A stretch of 64,000 nucleotides of DNA from Candidatus Zhuqueibacterota bacterium (GCA_049322915.1 JBMOPW010000011.1:1-64000), one strand, 5' to 3'. Positions 44,284 to 64,000 are shown, counted from the first letter of the stretch. Translations and numbers: made by a program. The notes: generated from the letters alone by a model not told the origin.

Positions 44284-44365
44284 ATCCTTTTGGGAGCCTG
44301 GCCCGGGTTCCGGCGATTGATGATTCATCAAAACGTTGTATCGATTTCAGACAGGAGAATTCAGC

Positions 44366-46756
44366 ATGAAAAATTATCTTTTCTCCCTGGTGATTGTTGC
44401 GGTACTGATTCGAACAGTGATGGCCCAGGACTATCTGCCGGAATACAATCCGGTGTTTGAAGATTCGGTCATCGCGCAGGTATTTATAGAAATTGACCCG
44501 GATTCCCTCGCGCTCATTTTGAGCCCGGACAATCTCTACAGCGACCACGAATACCCGGCCACGTTCATTTTCGACAATGGCATCATTCGCGACACGCTGA
44601 CCCAGGTGGGATTCCGGCTGCGGGGAAACACCTCCCGCCAATCCCACAAAAAATCGTTCAAGGTCTCGTTCAACAGTTTCGAGAGCGGTCGCAAATTTTA
44701 CGACGTGGAAAAACTGAACCTGAACAGCGAGCACAACGATCCCAGCATTATCCGCTCAAAGCTGTGCTGGGATTTATTCGGGAACATGCGGGTGCCGGCG
44801 TCGCGGGCGAATCATGTCAAACTGACCATCAACGGCGAGTACTATGGGCTTTACATCAATGTCGAGCACATCGACGAAAATTTTGTCCGCTCCCGTTTCG
44901 GAAATGACGAGGGGAATTTGTACAAATGTCTTTACCCGGCCGACCTGGCCTATCAGGGCGACAATCCGGATGCGTATAAAGTTTATATCTACGGCCGGCG
45001 TATTTATGATCTGAAAACCAACACCGAGGCCGACGATTATTCCGATCTGGCTCTTCTCATCCAAACGCTGCATTCCACCGATGACTCCCAATTCCGGGCT
45101 GAAATTGAAAGGATATTCAACGTCCCCTCGTTTTTGCGGGCGCTGGCCGTGGACATTCTCACCGGAAGTTGGGATGATTACTGGTTCTGGAACAACAATT
45201 ATTACCTCTATTTCAATCAGCGAACCGGGAAATTCGAATTCATACCCTACGACTATGACAATTCCTTCGGCATCTGGTGGGACGGCATTATGCCCGGAAT
45301 CGACTGGGGCTATCGAAACGTGTACCAGTGGGGACATCCGGATCAACAGCGACCGCTGGTGACGCGCATTCTGGGCATCCAGGAATACCGCAATCGGCTC
45401 ACGTTCTATATCCGTCAGCTTGTCCAGGACTATTTCAACAGTGATTTTCTGGCTCCGGCCATCGATCGCATTCATGCCATAATCTCATCGGCAGCTGAGC
45501 AGGATACATTTCGTACGCTGGATTATGGTTTCACCATTCAGGATTTTCACAACTCGTACGAACAATCCCTGGGCGGCCATGTTCCTTATGGCGTGAAGCC
45601 GTATATTTCCACGCGCAGCCAGACGGCGCTGGATCAGCTTGAGACCGTGAACATCTCTCCCATCATTTCTGAAGTAATAATTTCTCCGGACATCCCGGTC
45701 GCAGGCCTCGATATCGCGCTCACCGCACGGATCGAAGATGAGGACAGCTATCGCTCGGTCAAAGTGGTCTATTTCATCAACAGCGTGCAGCAGCCGAGAA
45801 TGACCATGTACGACGATGGGCAGCATGGGGACGGCGCGCCCGGCGATGATATTTTTGGCGCGACCATTCCGGCGGTGAATCAATCTGCGCTCATTCAGTT
45901 TTACATCGTCGCTGCCGATCTCGCCGGCAACCAGACCGTGGAACCGTACGGCGCACCGGGTTCGATGTTTGAGATGAACATTGGCCTTTCCCAACTGAAG
46001 CTGTTCATCAATGAATTTATGGCCAGCAATAATGCAACCCTCGCCGATCCGTTCGGCGACTATGATGACTGGATTGAAATTTACAACGGCGACACCAGCG
46101 CTATCTGGCTGGGCGATAAATTTTTGACCGACAACCTCGCCAACCCTGATAAATGGGCGTTGCCGGACACGACGCTGTCCCCCGGCCAATTCCTGCTGAT
46201 CTGGGCCGATGATGAGGTCGAACAGGGCCCGCTGCACACCAGTTACAAACTCGATCGCGACAGCGAGGAGATCGGCCTGTTCGACTCCGAAGCCAACGGT
46301 TTTGCCCTGATCGATTCGGTGACCTACGGCTACCAGGTTACGGATGTTTCCATGGGACGAGTGCCTGATGGCGGCCACATCTGGCAGTCGCTGTTGCAGC
46401 CAAGCCCGGGTTATTCGAATGTCGCCACCGGCATTCAGCGTCCTGGCCCGGCTACGCCGGTTGATTTTCAATTGATGCAGAATTACCCCAATCCGTTCAA
46501 CGCCGAGACTGTGATCACGGCCCTGGCGCCGGTCGCTTCGCATCTGAGGCTGACCATCACCAATATTTTAGGCGAGCAGGTGCGCCGGATAGATGAAAAG
46601 CATTGCGCCCCGGGTGTGATTCGTTTTCGCTGGAACGGGACCGATGACGCCGGCGCGACCCTGGCTTCGGGCGTCTATTTCGCCAGACTGGAGGCGCTGG
46701 ATACGGCTGGAAATCGCATCGCATATTCAAAAATTAAAGTACTATTTATTCAGTGA
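44366..46756 (+). CDS. CotH-family kinase with lamin-tail domain and T9SS-like CTD
   Basis: GFRLRGNTSR, KKSFK, YGLYINVE, WDDY..NNYYLY, IPYDYDNSFG; LTD (INEFMASN, DWIEIYN); CTD QNYPNPFN..WNG..ASGVYF. Confidence 0.88.
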   Translation: MKNYLFSLVIVAVLIRTVMAQDYLPEYNPVFEDSVIAQVFIEIDPDSLALILSPDNLYSDHEYPATFIFDNGIIRDTLTQVGFRLRGNTSRQSHKKSFKVSFNSFESGRKFYDVEKLNLNSEHNDPSIIRSKLCWDLFGNMRVPASRANHVKLTINGEYYGLYINVEHIDENFVRSRFGNDEGNLYKCLYPADLAYQGDNPDAYKVYIYGRRIYDLKTNTEADDYSDLALLIQTLHSTDDSQFRAEIERIFNVPSFLRALAVDILTGSWDDYWFWNNNYYLYFNQRTGKFEFIPYDYDNSFGIWWDGIMPGIDWGYRNVYQWGHPDQQRPLVTRILGIQEYRNRLTFYIRQLVQDYFNSDFLAPAIDRIHAIISSAAEQDTFRTLDYGFTIQDFHNSYEQSLGGHVPYGVKPYISTRSQTALDQLETVNISPIISEVIISPDIPVAGLDIALTARIEDEDSYRSVKVVYFINSVQQPRMTMYDDGQHGDGAPGDDIFGATIPAVNQSALIQFYIVAADLAGNQTVEPYGAPGSMFEMNIGLSQLKLFINEFMASNNATLADPFGDYDDWIEIYNGDTSAIWLGDKFLTDNLANPDKWALPDTTLSPGQFLLIWADDEVEQGPLHTSYKLDRDSEEIGLFDSEANGFALIDSVTYGYQVTDVSMGRVPDGGHIWQSLLQPSPGYSNVATGIQRPGPATPVDFQLMQNYPNPFNAETVITALAPVASHLRLTITNILGEQVRRIDEKHCAPGVIRFRWNGTDDAGATLASGVYFARLEALDTAGNRIAYSKIKVLFIQ

Positions 46757-49297: not shown

Positions 49298-49822
49298 ATG
49301 ATCTCAATCGCTCCGAAAGATCTGAAGATTCATCCGGTTGACCTGTGGCTCAATCAGTGGTTGCTGTTGACAGTCGGAGATAGACACGCGTTCAATACCA
49401 TGACTGTTGCCTGGGGCAGCATCGGCGGCATGTGGCAAAAGCCATTCGTCCAGGTGGTTGTCCGGCCAACGCGGCACACATTCAAATTCATTGAAAAATA
49501 TTCGACGTTCACGCTCTGCGCCTTTTCAGAAAGCCATCGCAAAGCATTGGCCTATCTGGGCACCAAATCAGGCCGAGACGGCAACAAAATTCAGGAATCG
49601 GGCCTGACCATCATCGATTCCCACGCGGTGGATGCGCCTTCATTCAAAGAGGCGGAGCTGATTCTGGAATGCAAAAAAATTTACTGGCAGGATATGAACC
49701 CCCACAATTTCATTGACACTGCCATTCACAGAAACTACCCGGCCAAGGACTATCATCGCATTTACTTCGGCGAAATTGTCTACGTCCTGGCGGACGATTC
49801 TTTCAAAAATTCACCCGAATGA
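49298..49822 (+). CDS. Flavin reductase-like FMN-binding protein
   Basis: FNTMTVAWG, VRPTRHT, GTKSGRDGNK, YHRIYFGEI. Confidence 0.88.
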   Translation: MISIAPKDLKIHPVDLWLNQWLLLTVGDRHAFNTMTVAWGSIGGMWQKPFVQVVVRPTRHTFKFIEKYSTFTLCAFSESHRKALAYLGTKSGRDGNKIQESGLTIIDSHAVDAPSFKEAELILECKKIYWQDMNPHNFIDTAIHRNYPAKDYHRIYFGEIVYVLADDSFKNSPE

Positions 49823-49839
49823 TGATGTGGGAAAACGCC

Positions 49840-52362
49840 ATGAATACGTTCAAGTTTCGATTATTCGCTCTCATCTTTTCTGCGACGATGCTTTGGTGCA
49901 GCAACCACGCCGGTCACTCGCAGAGCTGGATTCGGATCAATCAACTGGGTTATGTACCGGCATCGATCAAAGTCGCGGTGCTCGTGAGCAAGGATGACAT
50001 TGACTGCGCGCGTTTCTCGCTTCACGATGCAGCAACGAAACAGGAGGTCTGGTCTTCCAATTCAGTGCAGGCCGCCGGCGGATACGGTCCGTTCGTTCGT
50101 ACCTTTCGGCTCGATTTCTCCCGGTTCGATCAACCTGGCGACTATTACATTAAAACCAACGCCGCCGCATCGCCGGTCTTCCCCATTGGCGCGGATGTCT
50201 ACGCCGGCGCCGCCGATTTTCTTCTCCTGTACATGCGTCAGCAGCGCTGCGGATTCAATCCATTTTTGAACGACTCCTGCCACACGCACGATGGGTTCAC
50301 CATTTACGGGCCCATACCGGACGGCACGCCCATCGATGCCATCGGCGGCTGGCATGATGCCGGCGATTATCTGCAGTACGTGACAACCTCGGCCAACGCG
50401 ACCTACCACCTGCTGTTTGCCTATCGGGAGAACCCGGCGTCGTTCGGCGATGAGTTTTCAGCTAATGGCCTTCCCGGTAAAAATGGCCTGGCCGATGTGC
50501 TGGACGAGGCCAAATGGGGCCTGGATTGGCTGCTCAAAATGCATCCGCGCGAAGATTGGATGTTCAACCAAATTGCCGACGACCGCGACCACGCCGGTTG
50601 GCGGCTGCCAAACCAGGATACCACAAAATACGGAGTCGTGGGCCTGGCGCGGCCGGTGTATTTCTGCAATGGTCAGCCTCAGGGGCTGTTTCGATATAAA
50701 AATAGAACCACAGGCGCTGCGTCCACTGCTGGAAAATTCGCGGCAGCGTTTGCCCTGGGCGCTGAGATTTTCAGTGAAATCGATCCGGACTATGCCCGGC
50801 ACTTGGCCACGAAGGCAGCATCGGCCTATCGTTTCGGCGAGGCCAGGCCCGGCGTCTGCCAGACCGCACCCTGTCGCGCCCCGTATTTTTACGAAGAAGA
50901 CAACTGGGTCGATGATATGGAATTAGGTGCTGCGGCTCTCTTTGCATTGACGGAGCAGCCGGCATATTTCGACGATGCACTGAATTTCAGTCGCGACGAA
51001 CGAGTCACTCCCTGGATGGGCGCGGACACTGCCCGGCATTATCAGTGGTATCCCTTCATGAATCTCGGCCATTTTGAATTGGCCCGCAATGCATCGGAAG
51101 CGACCCGCACCGAACTGGCTGAAAATTATCAGGAGGGCCTGCGACGAACCTACGCCCGCGGGAAAGATAATCCGTTTCTGATGGGCGCGCCATTCATCTG
51201 GTGCTCGAATAACCTGGTTGTTGCCCTGGCGACGCAATGCAATCTGTATCATCGATTGACCGGGGACAGCACGTATCTCGAAATGGAGGCTGCGCTGCGC
51301 GATTGGCTGTTCGGCGCAAATCCCTGGGGCGTGAGCATGGTCATCGGACTGCCCACCAGCGGGACGTACGCCCATGATTCCCATTCCGCCTTCTCCAATC
51401 TGCACGGCTATCCCGTGGACGGTGGATTACTGGACGGGCCGGTGTACGGCAGCATTTTTCGCAGCCTGAAATATGTGGCGCTTCGCGAGACCGACGAATA
51501 CGCGCCGTTCCAGTCGGATCTGGTCGTCTATCACGATGATGTCGGAGACTATGCGACCAATGAAGCGACCATGGATGGAACCGCGACGCTTGTTCCGTAT
51601 CTCGCTGCGCTGGACGCACAGGGACGATTTGCAACTCCCGGCCGCCAGCAGCGTCGCGAATATCAATTCAGCCACGGCGCGATCATTCGCGGCGACACCA
51701 CCCAAAAGGCGTTGGCGCTGGTCTTCACCGGCGATGAGTTTGCCGATGGCGGCGACACCATTCGGGCCGTGCTGAAAAGGCATGGGGCGCCTGCGTCCTT
51801 CTTCTTCACCGGGAATTTCTACCGGAATCCGGCCTTCGCGCCTTTAATTCATCAATTGAACCAGGACGGTCATCTGCTCGGGCCGCATTCGGACCGGCAT
51901 CTGCTCTATTGCGACTGGGACAATCGCGACAGCCTGCTCGTCACCCGGCGCCAGTTCGAAACCGATATGAAGACCAATCTGCGCGCCATGCAGCAACTGG
52001 GAATTCCCTCGGCGCAGCGCCAATATTTCATCCCCCCTTTTGAATGGTACAACGCCACCATCAGTCGCTGGGCGCAGCAGATGGGGCTGATCCTGTTCAA
52101 TTTTACGCCGGGCACATTGTCCCACGCGGATTGGACTTATCCCCAACTCGGGCGCGGCTATGCGACTGCCGATCACATTTTCGACAGCATTCTTTCATTC
52201 GAAAAAAAACAGCCGCAGGGTCTTAACGGATTCATTCTGCTGAGCCACATCGGCGCAGATCCCCGTCGTCCGGATAAATTCTACCACCATCTCGATGCGC
52301 TTCTTCGCCATCTTTCCGAACGCGGTTATGCCTTCAAACGCATTGACGCGCTGATTGATTAA
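49840..52362 (+). CDS. Glycoside hydrolase family 9 (CelD-N Ig + GH9) fused to a CE4 polysaccharide deacetylase
   Basis: IRINQLGY, GGWHDAGDY, TNEATMDGTA; C-terminal ALVFTGD, FFFTG, GPHSDRH, PPFEWYN and ILLSH. Confidence 0.85.
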   Translation: MNTFKFRLFALIFSATMLWCSNHAGHSQSWIRINQLGYVPASIKVAVLVSKDDIDCARFSLHDAATKQEVWSSNSVQAAGGYGPFVRTFRLDFSRFDQPGDYYIKTNAAASPVFPIGADVYAGAADFLLLYMRQQRCGFNPFLNDSCHTHDGFTIYGPIPDGTPIDAIGGWHDAGDYLQYVTTSANATYHLLFAYRENPASFGDEFSANGLPGKNGLADVLDEAKWGLDWLLKMHPREDWMFNQIADDRDHAGWRLPNQDTTKYGVVGLARPVYFCNGQPQGLFRYKNRTTGAASTAGKFAAAFALGAEIFSEIDPDYARHLATKAASAYRFGEARPGVCQTAPCRAPYFYEEDNWVDDMELGAAALFALTEQPAYFDDALNFSRDERVTPWMGADTARHYQWYPFMNLGHFELARNASEATRTELAENYQEGLRRTYARGKDNPFLMGAPFIWCSNNLVVALATQCNLYHRLTGDSTYLEMEAALRDWLFGANPWGVSMVIGLPTSGTYAHDSHSAFSNLHGYPVDGGLLDGPVYGSIFRSLKYVALRETDEYAPFQSDLVVYHDDVGDYATNEATMDGTATLVPYLAALDAQGRFATPGRQQRREYQFSHGAIIRGDTTQKALALVFTGDEFADGGDTIRAVLKRHGAPASFFFTGNFYRNPAFAPLIHQLNQDGHLLGPHSDRHLLYCDWDNRDSLLVTRRQFETDMKTNLRAMQQLGIPSAQRQYFIPPFEWYNATISRWAQQMGLILFNFTPGTLSHADWTYPQLGRGYATADHIFDSILSFEKKQPQGLNGFILLSHIGADPRRPDKFYHHLDALLRHLSERGYAFKRIDALID

Positions 52363-54399: not shown

Positions 54400-56031
54400 T
54401 TACATTTCCTTTTTCCAGGTCTGGATTAACCGCTCTTTCTTCAGTCCCTGTTGAATGAATTCCCAGGGAAGTTTCGCATCGGCGTCGCGGTTTTGATAGA
54501 GCAGGTGTTCAACATCAATTTCAGCCATGCGCCAGGCCGTATCCCAATCCACATTCTGGTTTATTTTTAAGTAGATGGCCTGCGCCACTTTCTGATCGCC
54601 CAATGAAAACACCCCCTGCAGGATTTCATCTTTGATACTTTTCTCAGGGAAAAGCACACCGGGCAATTTTGTAAAAACTGACTTGAGGTGCTTTCGTTTC
54701 TTCTGAATTTCTTTTGGCCGTTCCATTTTCGACCATTGGAACGGCGTGAATGGTTTGGGGATGAATGTATTCACACTGACGGACATGGTCTGCTTTTTCG
54801 ATTTCATGCGGTGGATGCGAGCCACCATGTCCGCTATGCCGACGATATCGTCCATCGTCTCGCCGGGCAGGCCGATCATGAAATATAATTTAATATGCGA
54901 CATATTCGACCCGGCGATGATTGACGCTGCGTGATAAATCTGCTCATCCGATAGTTTTTTATTAATGCGGGTGCGCATTCCTTCTGTACCGGCTTCAGGG
55001 GCGAAGCTGAGGGATTTCACCAGCCCGCGATCCAGCACGGCCATGAAATCCTCGGTGATCTTATCCAACCGGAACGAGGATAATCCCAACTCATACCCGC
55101 GATTGACCAGTTCGCTGCACAATTCATACAGCCGGGGGTAATCGGAAAGCGCCGAGCCAATCAGCCCCACGCGTTGAGCACCCTGGCCATGAGTTTCAAC
55201 CGTATCGAGAATGACTTCGATTGGAAAAATCCGAAGCGGAAAATAGACATGGCTCGCCGCGCAAAAGTGGCACAGCCGCCCGCATCCGCGACCGACTTCG
55301 ACCAGGAACATATCCCTGAAGTGAATGTCCGGGCCAATCACCGCTGAATACTGGGGCAGTTGACTTTCGAACTTGTACGCCGGTTTTTGCAGGTCCTGTC
55401 CCGGCCGGTCGAAGAAAGTCGAATGGACGCCGGGAATATCAACGAGCGAGGCCAGAAAATCCTGTCGATCAGTTCTCTCCGCCCGATGGTGCTGCAATCG
55501 CTCCATCAGTTGGACTAATTGCGGCTCGATTTCGCCGATGAACATGAAGTCAAAGAACGGCTCAACAGGCGCCGGATTGATGAAACAGATGGCGCCGCCG
55601 GCAATGACCATTGGCTCGCGCGCGTGGCGTTTTTCTGCAAACGGCTCGATTCCCGCCGACAACAACATCTCAACAACATGCGGGAAGTCCAGCTCAAACG
55701 AGACAGAGAACGCAACGACATCAAAGTGGCGAAGCTCCTGGCCTGATTCCAGAGTTCGGGTAAAACGAGGCAGGCGCGTTTCGTAAAAAGCCCGCTCGCA
55801 GCGGACATCCGGCAACTCATTCAACAGGCGATACAATGCCTGAAATCCGAGGTTGGACATTCCGACAGCATAGGAATTCGGAAATACCAGCGCGATGGAC
55901 AGTGGAGCTTCGGGCCGAACCGTTACGCTCGACTTTTCCCGCTGCAGCAGCGATTCCCTGTAGTCCCTGTAAGAATTCACCTCAGATTTTTTCATACGAA
56001 CATCAATGGGAGCGCCGCGCCATTTTTTCAA
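54400..56031 (-). CDS. B12-binding-like radical SAM protein (start uncertain)
   Basis: FPNSYAVGMSNLG, EVGRGCGRLCHFC (CxxxCxxC), APEAGT, KLYFMIGLPGET, FIPKPFTPFQW. Confidence 0.85.
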   Translation of the reverse strand: MKKWRGAPIDVRMKKSEVNSYRDYRESLLQREKSSVTVRPEAPLSIALVFPNSYAVGMSNLGFQALYRLLNELPDVRCERAFYETRLPRFTRTLESGQELRHFDVVAFSVSFELDFPHVVEMLLSAGIEPFAEKRHAREPMVIAGGAICFINPAPVEPFFDFMFIGEIEPQLVQLMERLQHHRAERTDRQDFLASLVDIPGVHSTFFDRPGQDLQKPAYKFESQLPQYSAVIGPDIHFRDMFLVEVGRGCGRLCHFCAASHVYFPLRIFPIEVILDTVETHGQGAQRVGLIGSALSDYPRLYELCSELVNRGYELGLSSFRLDKITEDFMAVLDRGLVKSLSFAPEAGTEGMRTRINKKLSDEQIYHAASIIAGSNMSHIKLYFMIGLPGETMDDIVGIADMVARIHRMKSKKQTMSVSVNTFIPKPFTPFQWSKMERPKEIQKKRKHLKSVFTKLPGVLFPEKSIKDEILQGVFSLGDQKVAQAIYLKINQNVDWDTAWRMAEIDVEHLLYQNRDADAKLPWEFIQQGLKKERLIQTWKKEM

Positions 56032-56117
56032 CGGTGACCGGTTGGGGTGTATTCATCAGAAAAAAAACACGGCGCTCCCGCCTTTTGGTGATGTGATATA
56101 TGTGAAAAGTGTTCCGC

Positions 56118-57359
56118 TTACATTTCCATGCGCCGACGCAAAAACGTGGGCAGTTCGTAATTATCGGTTTTGGAACCGCCATCGCTCTCATCCGGAAAAT
56201 CGAATTCCGGATCGCGGCTCGTTCCGTTCAATTTGATTTTTCCGTGGCCGTTGCCATTACCGTTGCCATTTCCATTACCAGAGATAGCCTCCAGCTCGCT
56301 CTGCCGCTGGTAGGTCGGAATATCCAGGTAGTCAATCGTCGTATGAATAAAATCCATCTTCTTTCGCGCGCCGGCCAGCTTCTGTTTGCGGTTGTTCTGA
56401 TTGAAACCTGTGGCAATGACCGTGACGCGGATCTGATCTTTGAACTGGTCATCGATCACAGCGCCGACAATCACATTGGCATCCTGTCCCACGGCTTCCT
56501 GAATGATACTGGCAGCAAGGTCCACTTCGCTCAGCGTGAGGTCTTCGCCGCCGGTGATATTCACTAGCAAGCCCAGCGCGCCTGCAATGGAAACCTCTTC
56601 CAGCAGCGGACTGGAAATGGCGTTTTTAGCAGCTTCGGACGCTTTGTTATCTCCCGTCGCCACAGCCGATCCCATCAACGCATCGCCCATTTCGGACATG
56701 ACCGTTTTCACATCAGCAAAATCGAGATTGATGAGTCCGGGCACGGAGATCAAATCGGAAATGCCCTTGGTCGCATTGAACAGCACGTCATCGGCCATTT
56801 GAAATGCTTTGTTCAGCCGCGTATCCTTGGAAACGATGGAAAGAAGGCGCTGGTTCGGGATCACGATGAGCGTATCAACGCGTTCCTTCAATTCCGCCAG
56901 ACCTTCCTCAGCGCGCGCCATGCGTTTGGGGCCTTCAAAGTGAAACGGTTTGGTCACAATGCCCACGGTGAGCGCGCCGAGGTCTTTGGCGATTTCAGCG
57001 ACGATGGGCGCCGCACCGGTGCCGGTGCCGCCACCCATTCCAGCGGTCACAAAAACCATATCCGTGTCTTTCAACGCATTGAACACCGCGTCTTTGTCTT
57101 CTTCCACAGCGCGACGGCCAACCTCCGGATTCGCTCCGGCGCCGAGGCCTTTGGTTGAATTTCTTCCGATCTGCAATCGAATGGGCGCTTTGCAAATATT
57201 CAGCGCCTGCAAATCGGTATTTACAGCAATAAACTCCACGCCGGTGAGCCCTGCGGAGATCATGCGATTCACTGCATTGCCCCCGGCGCCTCCAACGCCA
57301 ATCACTTTCATCTTGGCGGTTGGGGTGCTCGATTCATCAAAATTAAATGTAAGACTCAT
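56118..57359 (-). CDS. ftsZ: Cell division protein FtsZ
   Basis: [28 protein letters not shown]-terminal PTFLRR. Confidence 0.97.
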
Positions 57360-57605
57360 AATGTGCCCTCCCCAATTGAATGGGTCATTTTATACGCAGT
57401 CAGTATCTGTCTTTTCCTGGCTCACTGACAGTTTATTCCTCAATATGTTGTTTAATTTTTGTCCTCAAAAGACCTGGTAATTCAAAAAATTTCCACTAAA
57501 ATTACAACCGTCACCGGCCATTCACTCGCATCCGAAACCGGACAAAGCAGCCGTCGGAATTCGATGCGAAGGACGCCTTTTTCAGGTGGCCGGTGAATTG
57601 CGTTT

Positions 57606-58856
57606 CTACGAGAACCAGCCTTTCATTCGCTCCCAGACGCGATCGAAAAGGCCAATCTCGCCTTCATTCAAAATGCCATCTAATTCAGATCGACCATTGA
57701 CTGCATAGAGTATCAGGCCAACGCCAGTCGCGTGAATCGGACTTTGCGCCAGATCGATGAGTCCGACGAAGCCCTTGGGAATGCCCAGCTTCACCGGCAT
57801 GTCAAAAACCTCCTCAGCCAGTTCAACGGCGCCCGGCAGCATTGCGCCGCCGCCGGTGATCACCAGACCAGCCGTCATCATATTGGCAAATTCCGATTTC
57901 CTGATTTCGCCGGCGGCAAGTCGAAAGATCTCCTCCATGCGCGGATTGATAATATCGACCAGCAATTCCTGCGCAACGCGCCGTGGCGGCCGGTCTCCCA
58001 CGCCGGGAATCTCCACGGTTGACTCTTTTCCCTTCAGGTGGGTATGCAGGACGAGGCCGGCTTTTCGTTTGACAAGTTCCGCCTGATCCAGCGGAGTGCG
58101 CAGGCACAGGGCAATATCATGAGTCACATTGCCGCCGCCCAGAGCAACGACCGCTGTATGACGGATGCATCCCTCGAAAAACATGGCGATATCCGTAGTT
58201 CCTCCGCCGACGTCCATGACAACCACACCAAGCTCTTTTTCATCATCACTGAGCACGGAGTAGCTCGACGCCAGAGGTTCCAGAACCAGATCTTTGACAT
58301 CAAATCCAGCGCGTTCAACGCTTCGAATGATATTCTGTGCGGATGTAATGGCGCCAGTCACAATATGAACCTCAGTCTCCAATCGTACGCCCGACATGCC
58401 CAATGGATCTTTTATACCGCGCTGATCATCCACGATGAACTCCTGCGGAATGATATGAATGATCTCCCGATCGATCGGCATCACAACCGCCTTGGCCGCA
58501 TCGATCGCGCGTCGAACATCATCCTCGGTAATCTCATTATCCGGCCCGGCAACAGCAACGACGCCGCGTCCGTTGTAACTGCGGATGTGATCACCGGCGA
58601 TTCCAACGTAGACCTGATTGACCTGAATACCTGCCATCTGTTCGGCTTTTTCCACGGCTAATTCAATGGAACGAACGGTTTTTTCGAGGTTGACAACCAC
58701 GCCTTTCCGCAATCCTTCGGAGGGCGCAGTGCCAACGCCGACAATCTTTGGCAGCTCACCCTCCGAGACCTCGGCGATGATGACGCCAATTTTTGTCGTT
58801 CCAATGTCAAGGCCGGTAATAAATTCGGTACCTGCCATCAGGTTTCTCCTTTTCAC
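57606..58856 (-). CDS. ftsA: Cell division protein FtsA
   Basis: GLDIGTTK, DVGGGTTD, ITGGGA; upstream of ftsZ. Confidence 0.96.
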   Translation of the reverse strand: MKRRNLMAGTEFITGLDIGTTKIGVIIAEVSEGELPKIVGVGTAPSEGLRKGVVVNLEKTVRSIELAVEKAEQMAGIQVNQVYVGIAGDHIRSYNGRGVVAVAGPDNEITEDDVRRAIDAAKAVVMPIDREIIHIIPQEFIVDDQRGIKDPLGMSGVRLETEVHIVTGAITSAQNIIRSVERAGFDVKDLVLEPLASSYSVLSDDEKELGVVVMDVGGGTTDIAMFFEGCIRHTAVVALGGGNVTHDIALCLRTPLDQAELVKRKAGLVLHTHLKGKESTVEIPGVGDRPPRRVAQELLVDIINPRMEEIFRLAAGEIRKSEFANMMTAGLVITGGGAMLPGAVELAEEVFDMPVKLGIPKGFVGLIDLAQSPIHATGVGLILYAVNGRSELDGILNEGEIGLFDRVWERMKGWFS

Positions 58857-59587
58857 TTATATTTCACAATCACCTGGTCCTTATACCTCAAATCAAGGGC
58901 CAGTACTTTATTCAAATCACCTTGCTTTTTCAGTTGTAGGTAGACCTTTGAAAGATTAAATAATTTCTGGGCGAACATCGATTTGCCCAAAATTATCATG
59001 GCGCGCTTGCCTTTCAGGAAAAGAACGATGCCGCGATCCTGCTGAAAATGCAGCTCGGAAATTTCATGGGATAGCACAAAATCCCGGGCGCGAAGCTCAT
59101 TGAGAATGGCCGCCGCCTGTTTGATATAATGCGGTTGCTTCGGAATTCGTCCACCGGCCGGACTCTCATGGAACGATAGCCCGGTGATGACCGGCAAATC
59201 GTACAGCGCTCTGGGCGAATAGTCTTCGATGACAGTGCCATCCGGCTGGACAGCCGCGAGCAGCGAACCGCTGATGGACGCAACGAGCCGTTTTTCCTTA
59301 ATTTTTATCTTCAGCGCTGACGGAAGGAATCGACTCACGCTCACCTTTTCAACCATCGGGTTCCTTTTGATCCGGGCTTCAATTTCACCCGTGTCGACTT
59401 TAAAAATATCTTTGCCGAATTCGATTTGGGCCTGGCTCAATATTTCCATCTCAGAAACCAATTGATTATTATGCACGCGGGCAGATTTCAGAATGAACGC
59501 ATCATTCTTCCGGAACCAAACGAAGGTCAGAATAAGCATCAATGCAATGAGCGCAATGCCGGTGGATATTTTAATTATTTTTTCCAT
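58853..59587 (-). CDS. ftsQ: Cell division protein FtsQ/DivIB
   Basis: Single TM, POTRA (NPMVEKVSVSRFLPSALKIKIKE), C-terminal DLRYKDQVIV; synteny. Confidence 0.88.
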   Translation of the reverse strand: MEKIIKISTGIALIALMLILTFVWFRKNDAFILKSARVHNNQLVSEMEILSQAQIEFGKDIFKVDTGEIEARIKRNPMVEKVSVSRFLPSALKIKIKEKRLVASISGSLLAAVQPDGTVIEDYSPRALYDLPVITGLSFHESPAGGRIPKQPHYIKQAAAILNELRARDFVLSHEISELHFQQDRGIVLFLKGKRAMIILGKSMFAQKLFNLSKVYLQLKKQGDLNKVLALDLRYKDQVIVKYK

Positions 59588-59877
59588 GATCTGACCCCAG
59601 TAATTACTTGACTTGCTCGTGTTATCAATTGACGAGCACCTATCAATTTGCAATCATTTCTCATTTTTCAAAACTATCTTCGGGGCGCCACCGATCGGCG
59701 CTGATTATGGCGGAGAGACTGTCTCGGACCTTTCCGGTGAATTCATTGTTCAAAACAATCCGCCATTCAATGATTTCAATCAGTCGCGTTCCGACTTTTT
59801 TTTCCCCTGGAAATTAACTCGTTTCCAAGACAGTCTCCCATTGTGCCGCCCCGTGTCAAACTAAAAAACGTCCCTTT

Positions 59878-61098
59878 TTATCTTCTCTTCTTCTTCCTCA
59901 AGCTCCTGGCGTTTGCGCTGGTGACATAATTATTTCGGGAAAGAGCGACGCGCCCATTGGCGTCTCCGTTTAATTGCGACGATATATTCAACAACACGCC
60001 CACTGCAACAAAATGCACCACCAGCGAACTCCCACCGTAGCTGATGAAGGGCATGGTGATACCCGTGACCGGGAGTAAATTCAGAGCGACGCCGGCATTG
60101 AACCAGGCGAAAATGATAATCGAAGACGTCATTCCCAGCGCCAACAATTGCCCTTCACGATCCGGCGCGTGAGATGCGATCCATAATCCGCGCCACAAGA
60201 AGGCGAGGAACAAAATCAGGAGCAGGACACAGCCAATCAGGCCAATCTCTTCCCCCACGATGGAGAAGATAAAATCGGTGAAAGGCTGCGGCAGGAAATG
60301 AAGCTTCTGCCGGCTATTGCCCAAACCGACGCCGAAAAGCCCGCCATTGGCGAACGAAATCAGGGATTGCGTCACCTGCCAGGGCGGCTCCTGCAAACCG
60401 CGAACTGCGTCCACGAATTTCATGAGCCTGATTTTCTGATATGGAAATGTGGTCAGCAAAAAGCCCACCAGCGTCAGTGCAGAAATGCCAAGCCCGGCCA
60501 AGTGATAGATACTGGCGCCAGCCACAAAAATGAGCATTGTGCTGATGATGAACGTGAGCATGCCGGTGCCCAGGTCCGGTTCCATCAGAATTGGGATGAC
60601 AATGAGCGCGATGATGAACAGCGTCGGTAATAATCCTTCGCTGAAATTTTTGATCCGCTCCCCCTTCTTGACCAAGAACGTCGATAGAAAAAGAATGAGT
60701 ACGTACTTGGCGATCTCCGACGGCTGAAATACCACACCCAGCAGGTCAATGGAACGACGGCTCCCTTTGTGGAAATTGCCGGCAAACAGCACGTACATCA
60801 GCATAATGAATGTGGCCGCCATCAGCAGCGGCGCAATCCGTTGAAGGGTGTGATAATCGATTTGCATGACCAGCACCATCAGCACGAGACCCAGGAAGAG
60901 CCGGAATAACTGCTTTTCCAGAAAATAATGGCTGTTGCCAAGCGCCTCCTTCGCTTTGAAATTACTGGCGCTATAAATTGCCGCTGTGCCGTACGCCGCT
61001 AACAACAGCACGATGATGAGCAGCAGCATATCGTACTTGACCAGGCCTGTGAATAGGCGTCGTCGTGTCGGCTGCCGTTTTAACTTCAATTTTACCAA
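59878..61098 (-). CDS. ftsW: SEDS peptidoglycan polymerase FtsW
   Basis: FQPSEIAK, EPDLG, GVGLGNSRQK, TDFIFSIVGEE, PFISYGGSS. Confidence 0.94.
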   Translation of the reverse strand: MVKLKLKRQPTRRRLFTGLVKYDMLLLIIVLLLAAYGTAAIYSASNFKAKEALGNSHYFLEKQLFRLFLGLVLMVLVMQIDYHTLQRIAPLLMAATFIMLMYVLFAGNFHKGSRRSIDLLGVVFQPSEIAKYVLILFLSTFLVKKGERIKNFSEGLLPTLFIIALIVIPILMEPDLGTGMLTFIISTMLIFVAGASIYHLAGLGISALTLVGFLLTTFPYQKIRLMKFVDAVRGLQEPPWQVTQSLISFANGGLFGVGLGNSRQKLHFLPQPFTDFIFSIVGEEIGLIGCVLLLILFLAFLWRGLWIASHAPDREGQLLALGMTSSIIIFAWFNAGVALNLLPVTGITMPFISYGGSSLVVHFVAVGVLLNISSQLNGDANGRVALSRNNYVTSANARSLRKKKRR

Positions 61099-61291
61099 AT
61101 TTCAAATCCTACAATCTGATGAATGCTTTCAACTTTATTTCATACCTGCCGCCATCCCGGTTTTTGCCTGGCTGCTGGCGACTCTTGAAAAGACAATCGC
61201 CCGGTCATCGGGCGTACTGCGCACCGGTCGGATTCGACAGAACATCAGGGACAGGCTCCAACTTTTTCCTTCCTCGCAAAGTCCCCGGTAA

Positions 61292-62380
61292 TCAACGGAC
61301 CTTGAACGTGCTCAAGGTCAATAGCACAAGCAGGATTCCCACAATCCAAAATCGAATCACCACTTGTGATTCATGCCAATTCTTCAGTTCGTAATGGTGA
61401 TGCAGCGGCGCCATTTTGAACAACCGCTTTCCACCGGTTTTCCTGAAATAGTAGACCTGCAAAATAACGGACAGCGTCTCTGCAACAAAGACACCACCGA
61501 TGATGATCAAAAACAATTCCTTTTTCAGCAGAATGGCCATGGTGCCAATGGCGCCTCCCAGGGCGAGTGACCCGGTATCGCCCATGAACACCTGAGCCGG
61601 ATGACAATTGAACCAGAGAAATCCCAACGACGCGCCAATGAGCGCGGCGGAATAGACCGTCAACTCGCCGGCGCCGGGCAGATGGACGATATTCAGGTAA
61701 TCGCTCAACACGGCGTTTCCTGTAATGTAGCTGATGCCGGCCCAGGCCATGGCGGTGATCCCAACCAGGCCAATGGCCAGACCATCCAGCCCATCGGTCA
61801 GATTGACGGCATTCGATGTGGCCGTGATGATGAAAACCACGACCGGGATGTACAGGTACCCAAAATCAATCATATAATTTTTGAAAAATGGCACCGTGGA
61901 CAGGGTTCGAAATTCTTTCATGTCGGGATGAAAATAAAGCACACTGCCGATGATCAATCCCAGCGCAACCTGTCCGACCATTTTGTAGCGGCCGATAAGC
62001 CCCTTTGGTTTTTTCTTCACAACCTTCAAAAAATCATCGAGGAAACCGACAAGCCCCATCCACACGGTGGCCAGGATAATGAGCAGCACATAGACATTGT
62101 CCAGCCGGGCGAACAGCAACGTCGGGATCAGGATCGAAATCAGGACGATCATTCCCCCCATCGTCGGCGTTCCAGCCTTTTTCAAATGCGTCTGCGGTCC
62201 GTCCGTGCGCACTTTTTCGCCGATCTGTTTTCTCTTCAGCATATTGATAATGAGGGGCCCGATAAAGAAACTAATCAGCAGCGCGAAAATCGCTGCAGAA
62301 GCAGAGCGAAACGTAATATATCTAAAAATGTTGAAGCCGGAAATTACGTCTCTCAGCGGGTACAGTAAGTGATAGAACAT
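61292..62380 (-). CDS. mraY: Phospho-N-acetylmuramoyl-pentapeptide transferase
   Basis: GTPTMGG, GFLDD, SNAVNLTDGLDGLA, FMGDTGS, MAPLHHHYE. Confidence 0.97.
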   Translation of the reverse strand: MFYHLLYPLRDVISGFNIFRYITFRSASAAIFALLISFFIGPLIINMLKRKQIGEKVRTDGPQTHLKKAGTPTMGGMIVLISILIPTLLFARLDNVYVLLIILATVWMGLVGFLDDFLKVVKKKPKGLIGRYKMVGQVALGLIIGSVLYFHPDMKEFRTLSTVPFFKNYMIDFGYLYIPVVVFIITATSNAVNLTDGLDGLAIGLVGITAMAWAGISYITGNAVLSDYLNIVHLPGAGELTVYSAALIGASLGFLWFNCHPAQVFMGDTGSLALGGAIGTMAILLKKELFLIIIGGVFVAETLSVILQVYYFRKTGGKRLFKMAPLHHHYELKNWHESQVVIRFWIVGILLVLLTLSTFKVR

Positions 62381-62400
62381 TCGTTCATCCCTGTGATAAA

Positions 62401-63783
62401 TTAATGTCCTGCAATGTGATTAGTGACATCTTCCATCGCCATCCCCCGGGAACCTTTTACAAGCACAAGATCGTTCTCCTGAACAATATTTCTGAGATGA
62501 TTCACCAGCGCCTGTTTGGTGGCAAAATGTATTGCATTCTTCAAACCCAACCGCGCTGCGGTTTCTGTCGTATGGGTGGACATGGGGCCCACTGTCAGAA
62601 GAAAATCTATGTTGTTCAATGCAACTACGTACTCACCAATGCCCTTGTGTTCCTGCTCTGCCCATTGACCCAATTCCAGCATGTCCGCCAACACGGCTAT
62701 TCTGCGGCCGCGGGTTTCCGTCTGCGACAGCGTTTGCAGCGCCTTTTTCGCGGACGCCGGATTGGAATTATAACAATCATTGATGATGACAATTCCCTCG
62801 TGACGAATGATCTCCATTCGTTTCGAAGTGGGCAGGAATTTTTCCAGCGCCGTTTTCACCTGAACCATGTTTAAATCGAACTCCAGCCCCACTGCCACTG
62901 CTGCTAACGCATTGTAGATGTTATGCATCCCTGAAATCCCCAGTTTAATTTCTGTATTATTAACTGTAAAACTGGCTCGCCCATCCTGATCCAGCCCGAT
63001 GAAACGCCCCTGCACATTTGCCGGTCGCTCGAATCCAAATGTCACCACTTTCCTGACGTCGGGGAGAGCATCGCACAAATTTGGATCATCCACATTCACG
63101 AACGCGGTCTGTCCGTCGCGCGATAAATAATCCCACAGTTCCCGTTTCGCTTTTGAAACGCCCTGTAACGATCCAAAAAATTCCAGGTGCGCCGGGCCGA
63201 TGTTGGTGATGAGCCCGTGAGTTGGCGCTGCGATTTCAGCAAGACGAGCTATTTCTCCGAAATTGCTTGTGCCCATTTCTATGACCGCAACCGTGTGGCC
63301 TTGTTCCAGACTGAGCAACGAAAGTGGAACACCCACGTGATTGTTCAAATTGCCTTTATTTTTATGAACCTGAAATTTCGCGGACAACACATTGGACACC
63401 ATCTCTTTGGTCGTGGTTTTACCGTTGCTGCCGGTCAACGCCAGCACCGGCAGTTGAAATTTCATCCGGTGGTAATGACTGATTTCCTGCAACGCCAGCA
63501 GTGTATCATCGACGACGAGCAGATTGTAGCCATAGTGCGATTCCTGCGCCTCCAGCCATGTGCGGGAGACGACGCATATCCGTTGATTGTTCTTTGCCAT
63601 ATCCGGAATGAACTGATGCCCATCGAATCGCTCGCCTTTAATGGCGATGAAAATTTCGCCGGGCTGAATGGATCGGGAATCGATTGAAAATCCACTGACC
63701 GGCCGGCTGAGCAACGCAGCATCGCCGCGGTACTCGAACCGACATTGTTTTATATCGAGCAGTTCTTTCGGTTTCATAGTCAT
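62401..63783 (-). CDS. murF: UDP-MurNAc-tripeptide D-Ala-D-Ala ligase
   Basis: IDSRSI, TGSNGKTTTKEM, NNHVGVP, EMG, NDCYNSNP, KGSRGM. Confidence 0.94.
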   Translation of the reverse strand: MTMKPKELLDIKQCRFEYRGDAALLSRPVSGFSIDSRSIQPGEIFIAIKGERFDGHQFIPDMAKNNQRICVVSRTWLEAQESHYGYNLLVVDDTLLALQEISHYHRMKFQLPVLALTGSNGKTTTKEMVSNVLSAKFQVHKNKGNLNNHVGVPLSLLSLEQGHTVAVIEMGTSNFGEIARLAEIAAPTHGLITNIGPAHLEFFGSLQGVSKAKRELWDYLSRDGQTAFVNVDDPNLCDALPDVRKVVTFGFERPANVQGRFIGLDQDGRASFTVNNTEIKLGISGMHNIYNALAAVAVGLEFDLNMVQVKTALEKFLPTSKRMEIIRHEGIVIINDCYNSNPASAKKALQTLSQTETRGRRIAVLADMLELGQWAEQEHKGIGEYVVALNNIDFLLTVGPMSTHTTETAARLGLKNAIHFATKQALVNHLRNIVQENDLVLVKGSRGMAMEDVTNHIAGH

Positions 63784-63801
63784 GAAAATGCCTCCACCTC
63801 A

Positions 63802-64000
63802 TCACCAGCTTTTTATTTCAGCCAAATCGATTGCCGGCTCACATTCCACCACGCAGCGCGCGCCGACACGTATCTTTCTCATGGGTTCCGGCGCCTGTCG
63901 TTTCACCTGACCACTGCCGTGAACCACCACGCGCAATCCCTTTCGGGACATTTCCGACACAGCATCCCGCAGGCTCAAACCGATGACCGACGGCACAACC
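63802..64000 (-). CDS. ftsI: C-terminal PASTA domain of a class B PBP (probably FtsI), truncated by the window edge
   Basis: VPSVIGLSLRDA..GL..GSGQVKRQAP is a PASTA pattern; position at the head of the dcw genes. Confidence 0.7.
   Translation of the reverse strand, partial: VVPSVIGLSLRDAVSEMSRKGLRVVVHGSGQVKRQAPEPMRKIRVGARCVVECEPAIDLAEIKSW

Follow-up and report, generated by a model that had tools for sequence, protein, structure and literature searches.

A compact division and cell wall cluster in a Candidatus Zhuqueibacterota genome, and a tentative route to the peptidoglycan stem without MurD and MurE

[quoted passage not shown] MurC, MurD, MurE and MurF are regarded as universally essential in walled bacteria and as antibiotic targets. 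Here we analyse the dcw cluster on a 64,000-nucleotide stretch of DNA from a Candidatus Zhuqueibacterota bacterium (GCA_049322915.1 JBMOPW010000011.1:1-64000), hereafter the window, which is part of a 134,641-bp contig and provides all of the evidence from this bacterium's own genome. The cluster keeps murF, mraY and ftsW between a penicillin-binding protein (PBP) gene and ftsQAZ, and murE, murD, murG and murC are missing from their slots. The layout is inherited, and in the annotation tables of related genomes calls for murD, murE and the glutamate racemase gene murI are rare.

Departures from the canonical scheme are known. Tannerella forsythia, which belongs to the same superphylum as the window, is an N-acetylmuramic acid (MurNAc) auxotroph: it has no murA or murB, has given up this part of de novo precursor synthesis, lives on the wall fragments of others through salvage by AmgK and MurU, and keeps MurC to MurF. 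In the Fibrobacterota-Chlorobiota-Bacteroidota (FCB) superphylum as a whole, murB and ddlB are characteristically outside the cluster and an ancestral murA-murB tandem located elsewhere has been reconstructed; loss of murD, murE and murC from the cluster is not among what these passages of the study report (Léonard et al. 2022, PMC8871954). In the recycling branch of Gram-negative bacteria (Mpl, LdcA and AmpG), a MurC-like ligase loads tripeptide upstream of MurF. Passages of PMC3060825 describe Mpl as a ligase that attaches a tri-, tetra- or pentapeptide to UDP-MurNAc and as a recycling enzyme that the organisms studied can do without; on overexpression it can also accept L-Ala and rescue a murC(ts) mutant. 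A sequence motif for Mpl is given there.

Gene content of the cluster and its gaps

The cluster lies on the minus strand, and its seven genes are co-directional and in the canonical relative order, PBP(PASTA)-murF-mraY-ftsW-ftsQ-ftsA-ftsZ, as assigned by open reading frame (ORF) calls together with NCBIfam and Pfam profiles. The window ends within the first of them, a class B PBP of the FtsI/SpoVD type, of which the 3' end with a PASTA domain is present (63802..63999; Pfam PASTA 37.2 bits, E 2.8e-9) and whose ORF is open at the window edge; the region of ftsL, rsmH and mraZ lies beyond that edge. It is followed by murF (62401..63783), encoding a UDP-MurNAc-tripeptide:D-Ala-D-Ala ligase of 460 aa (TIGR01143, 411.4 bits against a cutoff of 288.6), mraY (61292..62380; 362 aa; TIGR00445, 396.3 bits, cutoff 192.05) and ftsW (59878..61098), encoding a SEDS (shape, elongation, division and sporulation) glycosyltransferase of 406 aa. 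FtsW clears its model narrowly (TIGR02614, 339.1 bits, cutoff 337.5), scoring 331.7 bits against the spoVE model (cutoff 448.8) and 285.8 against the RodA model. The run ends with ftsQ/divIB (58853..59653; 266 aa), recognized by Pfam POTRA_1 (52.6 bits) and FtsQ_DivIB_C (32.5 bits) and far under the cutoff of the NCBIfam FtsQ model with 23.4 bits, ftsA (57606..58856; 416 aa; TIGR01174, 444.6 bits) and, as the final cluster gene, ftsZ (56118..57359; 413 aa; TIGR00065, 440 bits).

The one Mur ligase of the cluster is a MurF by its profile scores. It covers TIGR01143 at model positions 1-416 of 418, keeps every invariant column of a 30-sequence alignment and reaches at most 111 bits against the MurE, MurC and MurD models (110.9 bits against the murE model, cutoff 257.3). 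Its gene begins 18 bp past the PBP stop, in the slot that murE holds in canonical clusters.

No gene for murE, murD, murG, murC, murB or ddl is present in the cluster, and no mur gene was found elsewhere in the 64 kb by Pfam and/or NCBIfam scans of 32 of the 39 ORFs of at least 90 aa (the other seven are all of at most 106 aa). A six-frame tblastn of the 64 kb with Calditrichaceae queries detected no remnants of murE, murD, murG or murC: the only matches were paralogous ones on murF, MurG gave nothing below E = 0.5, and neither a MurD remnant in the mraY-ftsW gap nor a MurG or MurC remnant in the ftsW-ftsQ gap was seen. The same Pfam and NCBIfam scans found no Mpl-type ligase, LdcA or muropeptide importer encoded within the window. 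An earlier reading made from the sequence alone (the sequence-only reading) had already given both this order and these absences, and it is borne out by ORFs and profile scores for the former and by profile scans and tblastn for the latter. Its spacings of 18 bp between PBP and murF and 193 bp between mraY and ftsW are likewise as measured; for the ftsW-ftsQ gap it gave about 290 bp where the longest ORF leaves 224 bp, and a later ftsQ start would yield the larger figure.

The remaining gaps by longest ORF are 20 bp for murF-mraY, -4 bp for ftsQ-ftsA (a 4-bp overlap) and 246 bp for ftsA-ftsZ. The 193-bp mraY-ftsW gap (61099..61291, minus strand), the murD slot of canonical clusters, folds no better than shuffled sequences (z = -0.22) and contains a terminator-like GC hairpin at 61214-61198. 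A scan of 55900-64000 for promoters and terminators returned 13 sites of each kind, where shuffled sequences had 8.3 +/- 2.2 and 9.1 +/- 3.3, respectively. We do not count these totals as an excess over shuffles, and apart from this one hairpin we do not consider such sites convincing. The 224-bp ftsW-ftsQ gap (59654..59877, minus strand) corresponds to the murG slot in the closest relatives and to the murG-murC slot in canonical clusters. Its predicted RNA fold has a minimum free energy of -73.7 against -57.2 +/- 4.3 for shuffles (z = -3.87, none of 200 shuffles as good) and includes an inverted repeat, 59715-59728 with 59824-59837, that forms a 16-bp long-range stem and is unique within the window. 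No Rfam family was detected in 55900-64000, the single match of 21.3 bits against a gathering score of 77 being taken as chance. This structured region may serve as a leader for ftsQAZ, or it may be a scar left by the removal of murG.

A compact layout shared with relatives

The window encodes TonB-dependent receptors with CarboxypepD_reg domains, PorV-like proteins and type IX secretion system (T9SS) C-terminal sorting domains, and these features mark it as coming from an FCB-group diderm. The MurF matches named 'candidate division KSB1' are 50-58% identical to the window's protein, with one partial match at 66%. Judged from its sequence, the window belongs to candidate phylum KSB1 (Zhuqueibacterota) or a close relative of it. 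According to passages of PMC11683472, the name Zhuqueibacterota replaced KSB1 in 2024, and 'clade II' of an earlier survey was transferred to JdFR-76, a sister phylum.

For comparison we used the best 80 dcw loci listed from a MurF-based scan of a genome collection, in which the top MurF identity is 45% and none of the matches listed is titled KSB1; gene order was assigned by best BLAST match to the proteins of L005. Of these 80 loci, 56 have murE ahead of murF and 51 have murD after mraY; in the remaining loci MurF or MraY is uncalled or at the locus edge. Both the PBP-murF and the mraY-ftsW adjacency occur in L001 ('uncultured Cytophagia') and L004 ('uncultured Deferribacteres') only. PBP-before-murF calls in L039, L044 and L061 were left uncounted, because their gaps of 1.1-1.8 kb could hide a murE missed by the crude ORF caller, which also produces spurious opposite-strand ORFs on high-GC loci. 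By NCBIfam, L001 and L004 read PBP-murF-mraY-ftsW-murG-ftsQ-ftsA-ftsZ.

L001 and L004 are also the loci closest to the window among the best 80. Identity to the window is 68% for MraY, 67% for FtsA and 63% for FtsZ in L001, and 64%, 62% and 56%, respectively, in L004, with 57-59%, 50-56% and 52-53% in Calditrichia (L005 and L007). The genes that the window keeps share order and strand with the canonical clusters of L005 and L003 and are orthologous to them (MraY 57-59%, FtsZ 50-53% identity), but where those clusters carry murE, murD, murG and murC in their slots the window has neither genes nor remnants. In a tree of MurF, MraY and FtsW (46 rows, quick IQ-TREE), the window, L001 and L004 stand on one side of a branch with moderate support (SH-aLRT 82), inside an FCB group with a support of 100 that also holds Ignavibacteria and Calditrichia, both of canonical order. 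As the three are grouped within relatives of canonical order, a single origin of the compact layout suffices.

The same layout is present in a genome assigned to the phylum by name. The metagenome-assembled genome (MAG) OFTM153 (p__KSB1;c__UBA2214; 97.74% complete, 1.1% contamination; PMC10732223, supplement file 1) reads, on scaffold 50 from gene 67 to gene 57, mraZ, mraW, a small unannotated ORF, ftsI, murF, mraY, ftsW, murG, ftsQ, ftsA, ftsZ. The genes murE, murD and murC are thus gone from the same junctions in L001, L004 and OFTM153, with PBP-murF and mraY-ftsW junctions identical to those of the window, and all three keep murG between ftsW and ftsQ where the window has its structured 224-bp gap. 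OFTM153 further carries a murA-murB tandem on the same scaffold as its dcw cluster, about 50 kb away, in line with the FCB pattern.

These comparisons indicate absences of three different ages: murB and ddl are absent from the cluster FCB-wide, murE, murD and murC clade-wide, and murG in the window's lineage specifically. In the FCB superphylum murB and ddl were never in the cluster and are located elsewhere. As the absences differ in age, the gaps are not one event, which disposes of the idea in the sequence-only reading of three excisions of one functionally coherent subset. The compact layout is inherited; neither misassembly nor a recent set of three deletions accounts for it.

Contig sizes bear on the absence of murG. 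Among MurF matches below 56% identity to the window, 13 of 82 sit on a contig of exactly the same size as a match to the L001 MurG query. None of the 37 MurF matches at 56% identity or above pairs with a same-size MurG contig, 10 of the 37 lying on contigs of at least 20 kb, one of which, with a MurF 65% identical to the window's, measures 5.2 Mb; the MurG matches listed, several of them named 'candidate divi...', reach down to 46% identity, and a more divergent MurG would fall outside them. The absence is confined to the window and perhaps its closest relatives, and the data fit a departure of murG that is particular to the subclade of the window. The gene has probably been relocated, since murG is called in 38 of 44 KSB1 MAGs (PMC9012183, supplement file 7). 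We infer that murG was an ancestral cluster member that is kept in relatives and has moved elsewhere in the window's lineage.

Several details of these clusters are recorded in their own right. A division PBP with a C-terminal PASTA domain, a domain better known from Gram-positive bacteria, is encoded in the window (63802-63999), L001 (7659-9830), L004 (7856-9934) and L005 (6340-8412); these PBPs, all from diderm FCB bacteria, score best against SpoVD/PBP2X-type models, and the FtsI row of OFTM153 has no PASTA entry. Directly downstream of ftsZ the window encodes, on the minus strand, a 543-aa B12-binding radical SAM protein (54400-56031) of the uncharacterised family TIGR03960 (317.9 bits, cutoff 462.3); in OFTM153 the gene for ribosomal protein L28, on the opposite strand, comes after ftsZ instead. 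Further afield, ten Nitrospirota loci (L008, L009, L010, L011, L014, L015, L016, L025, L037 and L050) have an extra ORF of about 320-400 aa, with no match among the dcw references, between mraY and murD. In L031 (Paenibacillus camelliae, around position 10001) murF follows a second PBP gene by 188 bp without murE, and murD still follows mraY; the six other Paenibacillus loci differ, and L031 may be an independent relocation of murE.

Stem-peptide ligases and a proposed loading of preformed tripeptide

Only three of the proteins listed for OFTM153 in the DRAM annotation table (PMC10732223, supplement file 1) carry the Pfam name 'Mur ligase middle domain': MurF (50_63), FolC (42_89) and OFTM153_22_50, which is labelled both K01924 (MurC) and K02558 (Mpl). 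The count is a search by Pfam domain name, not by K01925/K01928. The rows for OFTM153 stand at the head of the file, before those for OFTM174, and a second KSB1 MAG, OFTM177, is partly covered and goes without a count. By this search neither MurD nor MurE is present in the annotation table of this one 97.74%-complete MAG. The DRAM pipeline does detect Mur ligases, since for a Planctomycetota MAG it lists, in this table, MurC, MurD, MurE, MurF and FolC. There is no entry for murI (K01776) in the covered part of the file, and OFTM153 has two copies of LdcA. The gene for OFTM153_22_50 stands alone, away from the dcw cluster, among dtd, maf, a rodZ-like gene and a gene for an R3H protein.

The pattern extends to the phylum. 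We recounted the KEGG Orthology (KO) calls that Li et al. give for 44 KSB1 MAGs (PMC9012183, supplement file 7). Ten MAGs have a call for murE, 9 for murD, 4 for both and 29 for neither, and murI is called in 4. The counts for other genes of wall synthesis and recycling are 40 for mpl and for ldcA, 39 for mraY and for dapF, 36 for murC, 33 for murF, 23 for ampG, 10 for dat and 1 for murU. With clade II, now a sister phylum, left out, murE is called in 7 of 33 MAGs and murD in 5 of 33. Calls for murC and mpl coincide in 35 of the 44 MAGs, as would be expected if a single protein carried both labels. In the Zhuqueibacterota gain/loss table, amgK, murF, murG and mpl have low orthogroup numbers and murA, murB and murE high ones, to be read as family size by assumption only; no murC or murD KO is present in that table.

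A threshold artefact is unlikely to account for the missing calls, because vertical orthologues from Calditrichaceae pass the NCBIfam cutoffs about twofold (MurD 434.8 bits, cutoff 211.95; MurE 511.8 bits, cutoff 257.3) and a Pfam domain search would catch divergent Mur ligases. A Calditrichaceae MurE query gave no KSB1-named match and no match in contig size among those listed, which have at least 45% identity; with L005 MurF itself only 40% identical to the window's MurF, this result counts neither for nor against a loss. Most likely, murD, murE and murI are absent from the genome altogether.

The reading that we tentatively favour, without regarding it as established, is that the cluster is an inherited compact one, that the steps adding D-glutamate (D-Glu) and diaminopimelate (DAP) are truly lost, and that a MurC/Mpl-type ligase loads a preformed tripeptide for MurF. 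UDP-MurNAc would receive the first three stem residues in one step, through a single ligase of this type encoded elsewhere in the genome. Its substrate would be preformed L-Ala-gamma-D-Glu-mDAP (mDAP being meso-DAP) from recycling of the cell's own wall and/or from imported wall fragments, and LdcA would shorten tetrapeptide to the tripeptide. MurF would then add D-Ala-D-Ala, and MraY, MurG, FtsW and FtsI would act as usual; given UDP-MurNAc-tripeptide, the retained enzymes would make up a complete late pathway. If D-Glu arrived inside the peptide, the enzymes that add D-Glu and DAP and the racemase that forms D-Glu would be expected to be absent together, which is the pattern described above. 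In this scheme the Mpl branch, which in known organisms is dispensable beside essential MurC, MurD and MurE, would in KSB1 be the sole route, served by an uncharacterised ligase; mpl and ldcA are the genes called in 40 of 44 MAGs. We infer two elements here, that the window's genome resembles those of its relatives and that the ligase accepts tripeptide. For murD and murE, the suggestion in the sequence-only reading of salvage or a non-canonical route thus gains real support from the relatives' tables; for murB, ddl, murG and, ambiguously, murC, location elsewhere explains the gap in the cluster.

Several observations weigh against this scheme. Dependence on external tripeptide for net wall growth is not known from any free-living bacterium of 4-5 Mb genome size. 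OFTM153 retains murA and murB and is therefore no general wall-precursor auxotroph: T. forsythia lost the sugar step (MurA/MurB), whereas OFTM153 has it and is without the peptide steps. The ligase carries both the MurC and the Mpl label, which leaves its specificity putative, and its neighbours suggest a housekeeping role and say nothing on substrate. The domain-level evidence is the annotation table of one MAG, taken without sequences, and for the window's own genome the data span the 64 kb. Li et al. made their calls with KofamScan (mapper mode) on MAGs with a completeness of 50% or more, so that a zero means 'no hit above threshold'. The MAGs that do have murE (10 of 44), murD (9 of 44) or both (4 of 44) may reflect contamination or real lineage differences, the window's subclade not being placed among the 44.

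The 'amgK' label is a further weak point. Of OFTM153's proteins the sole match to K07102 is OFTM153_54_1, which is also labelled RapZ (K06958) and is a P-loop ATPase (PF03668), and OFTM177_145_8 carries the same labels; amgK calls are unreliable because this RapZ-type ATPase is the only K07102 match in OFTM153, and the KSB1 amgK calls in published tables may be partly false. Both murA and murB are uncalled in 18 of the 44 MAGs, 15 of which have an amgK call, and a murU call is present in a single MAG. We had considered AmgK-based MurNAc salvage as part of the main account and demoted it on the RapZ-like nature of that sole match.

Among the alternatives, simple relocation survives best, and we regard it as unlikely. 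The mur genes of Bacillus and Bacteroidota are dispersed, and by analogy murE, murD, murG, murC, murB and ddl would all be ordinary, vertically inherited genes elsewhere in the genome, serving a textbook pathway whose operon is merely split, as in many phyla. Relatives do carry murA-murB, murG and a ligase of the MurC type, whether within the cluster or away from it, murE and murD are called in 10 and 9 of the 44 MAGs, and the search of the window's own genome is confined to 64 kb. However, the near-complete OFTM153 has no further Mur-ligase-domain protein, 29 of 44 MAGs are without murD and murE, yet murF, mraY, murG and mpl are called in 33-40 of the 44, murI is uncalled in 40 of the 44, and orthologues of normal divergence would readily pass the thresholds. 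Ordinary copies of murB, murC, murD, murE and murG elsewhere, which the sequence-only reading would have taken as simple relocation, are found in relatives for murB and murG, are ambiguous for murC and are not found for murD and murE, the rest of the window's own genome being outside the data. Should murD and murE sit elsewhere in that genome, the finding would be one of ordinary operon dispersal.

An unrecognised de novo route that uses no external peptide is improbable. D-Glu and DAP could be added inside the cell by enzymes other than Mur ligases; ATP-grasp ligases, for example, might assemble a free peptide for the MurC/Mpl-type ligase to attach. Alternatively, the two remaining ligases could have broadened specificity. 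Such a route would suit a ligase gene set among housekeeping and cell-shape genes, the retention of murA and murB in OFTM153 and the calling of dapF in 39 of 44 MAGs; KSB1 genomes are large and come from many habitats in the passages that describe them (PMC9012183, PMC11683472). All six clade I KSB1 MAGs have four ddl-family calls (K01921) each, against one in most other MAGs, and these too could be counted in its favour. Against it, no candidate enzyme has been identified, the source of D-Glu is unannotated in most MAGs (murI in 4 and dat in 10 of 44), and near-universal ldcA and mpl are directly explained by salvage.

The sequence-only reading had also raised displacement by a second mur cluster located elsewhere and perhaps gained by horizontal transfer. 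This is very improbable: OFTM153 has a murA-murB tandem, a lone MurC/Mpl-type ligase and no second set of Mur ligases, and MurF, MraY and FtsW group the window with its FCB relatives, as vertical descent predicts. We give practically no credence to an assembly or binning artefact, for although the murG-less ftsW-ftsQ junction is seen in the window only, three other assemblies, made independently (L001, L004 and OFTM153), have the same PBP-murF and mraY-ftsW junctions, reading frames are intact and tightly spaced, the composition of the window is flat, and no repeats able to mislead an assembler, and no scars, were found at the cluster junctions.

A broader and more doubtful proposal, possible at best, is that across the whole phylum free-living, large-genome KSB1 bacteria make peptidoglycan with two Mur ligases only, one of the MurC/Mpl type and MurF, after the loss of glutamate racemase, MurD and MurE. 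For net growth they would either depend on the wall peptides of other bacteria in necromass or build the stem peptide first and attach it later by an undescribed route, and the compact dcw cluster would be the genomic footprint. If true, a widespread environmental phylum without MurD and MurE would overturn the generalisation that these enzymes are essential and would offer a natural system for studying peptide loading by a MurC/Mpl-type ligase. Resistance to cultivation could reflect a need for supplied muropeptide or tripeptide, and KSB1 would be linked to the turnover of bacterial necromass in sediments.

A full-text literature search, most subscription journals being outside its scope, gave no description of a free-living lineage that makes peptidoglycan without MurD and MurE, or of wall synthesis in KSB1. 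The main text of PMC9012183 has no occurrence of 'mur', that of PMC11683472 none of 'peptidoglycan' or 'mur', and that of PMC10732223 none of 'peptidoglycan', 'cell wall' or 'mur'. A survey of MurE and MurF (PMC10214165) leaves Mpl unmentioned, and 12 of its 14 passages containing 'lack', 'absent' or 'missing' include none on genomes without murD or murE. The relevant data are already in the supplements of PMC9012183, PMC11683472 and PMC10732223, unmentioned in the main texts, and the question can be tested with public genomes.

Other features of the window

Three tandem paralogous cassettes occupy 5153-28581 on the minus strand. Each consists of a TonB-dependent receptor (34-41% mutual identity) followed by a protein of 950-1200 aa without a Pfam domain (27-39%), and in two of the three a PorV-like protein comes next (50% identical); the cassettes resemble a set of related loci for uptake or secretion at the outer membrane. 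At 49819-52362 on the plus strand, an 847-aa protein fuses a GH9 glycoside hydrolase, with CelD_N, to a polysaccharide deacetylase domain. Finally, 44336-46756 encodes a member of the CotH kinase family that carries both a lamin-tail and a T9SS-type C-terminal domain, and 37070-39895 a 941-aa PDZ-SpoIIE phosphatase; the CotH and SpoIIE families have sporulation-derived names and are here encoded in a diderm.

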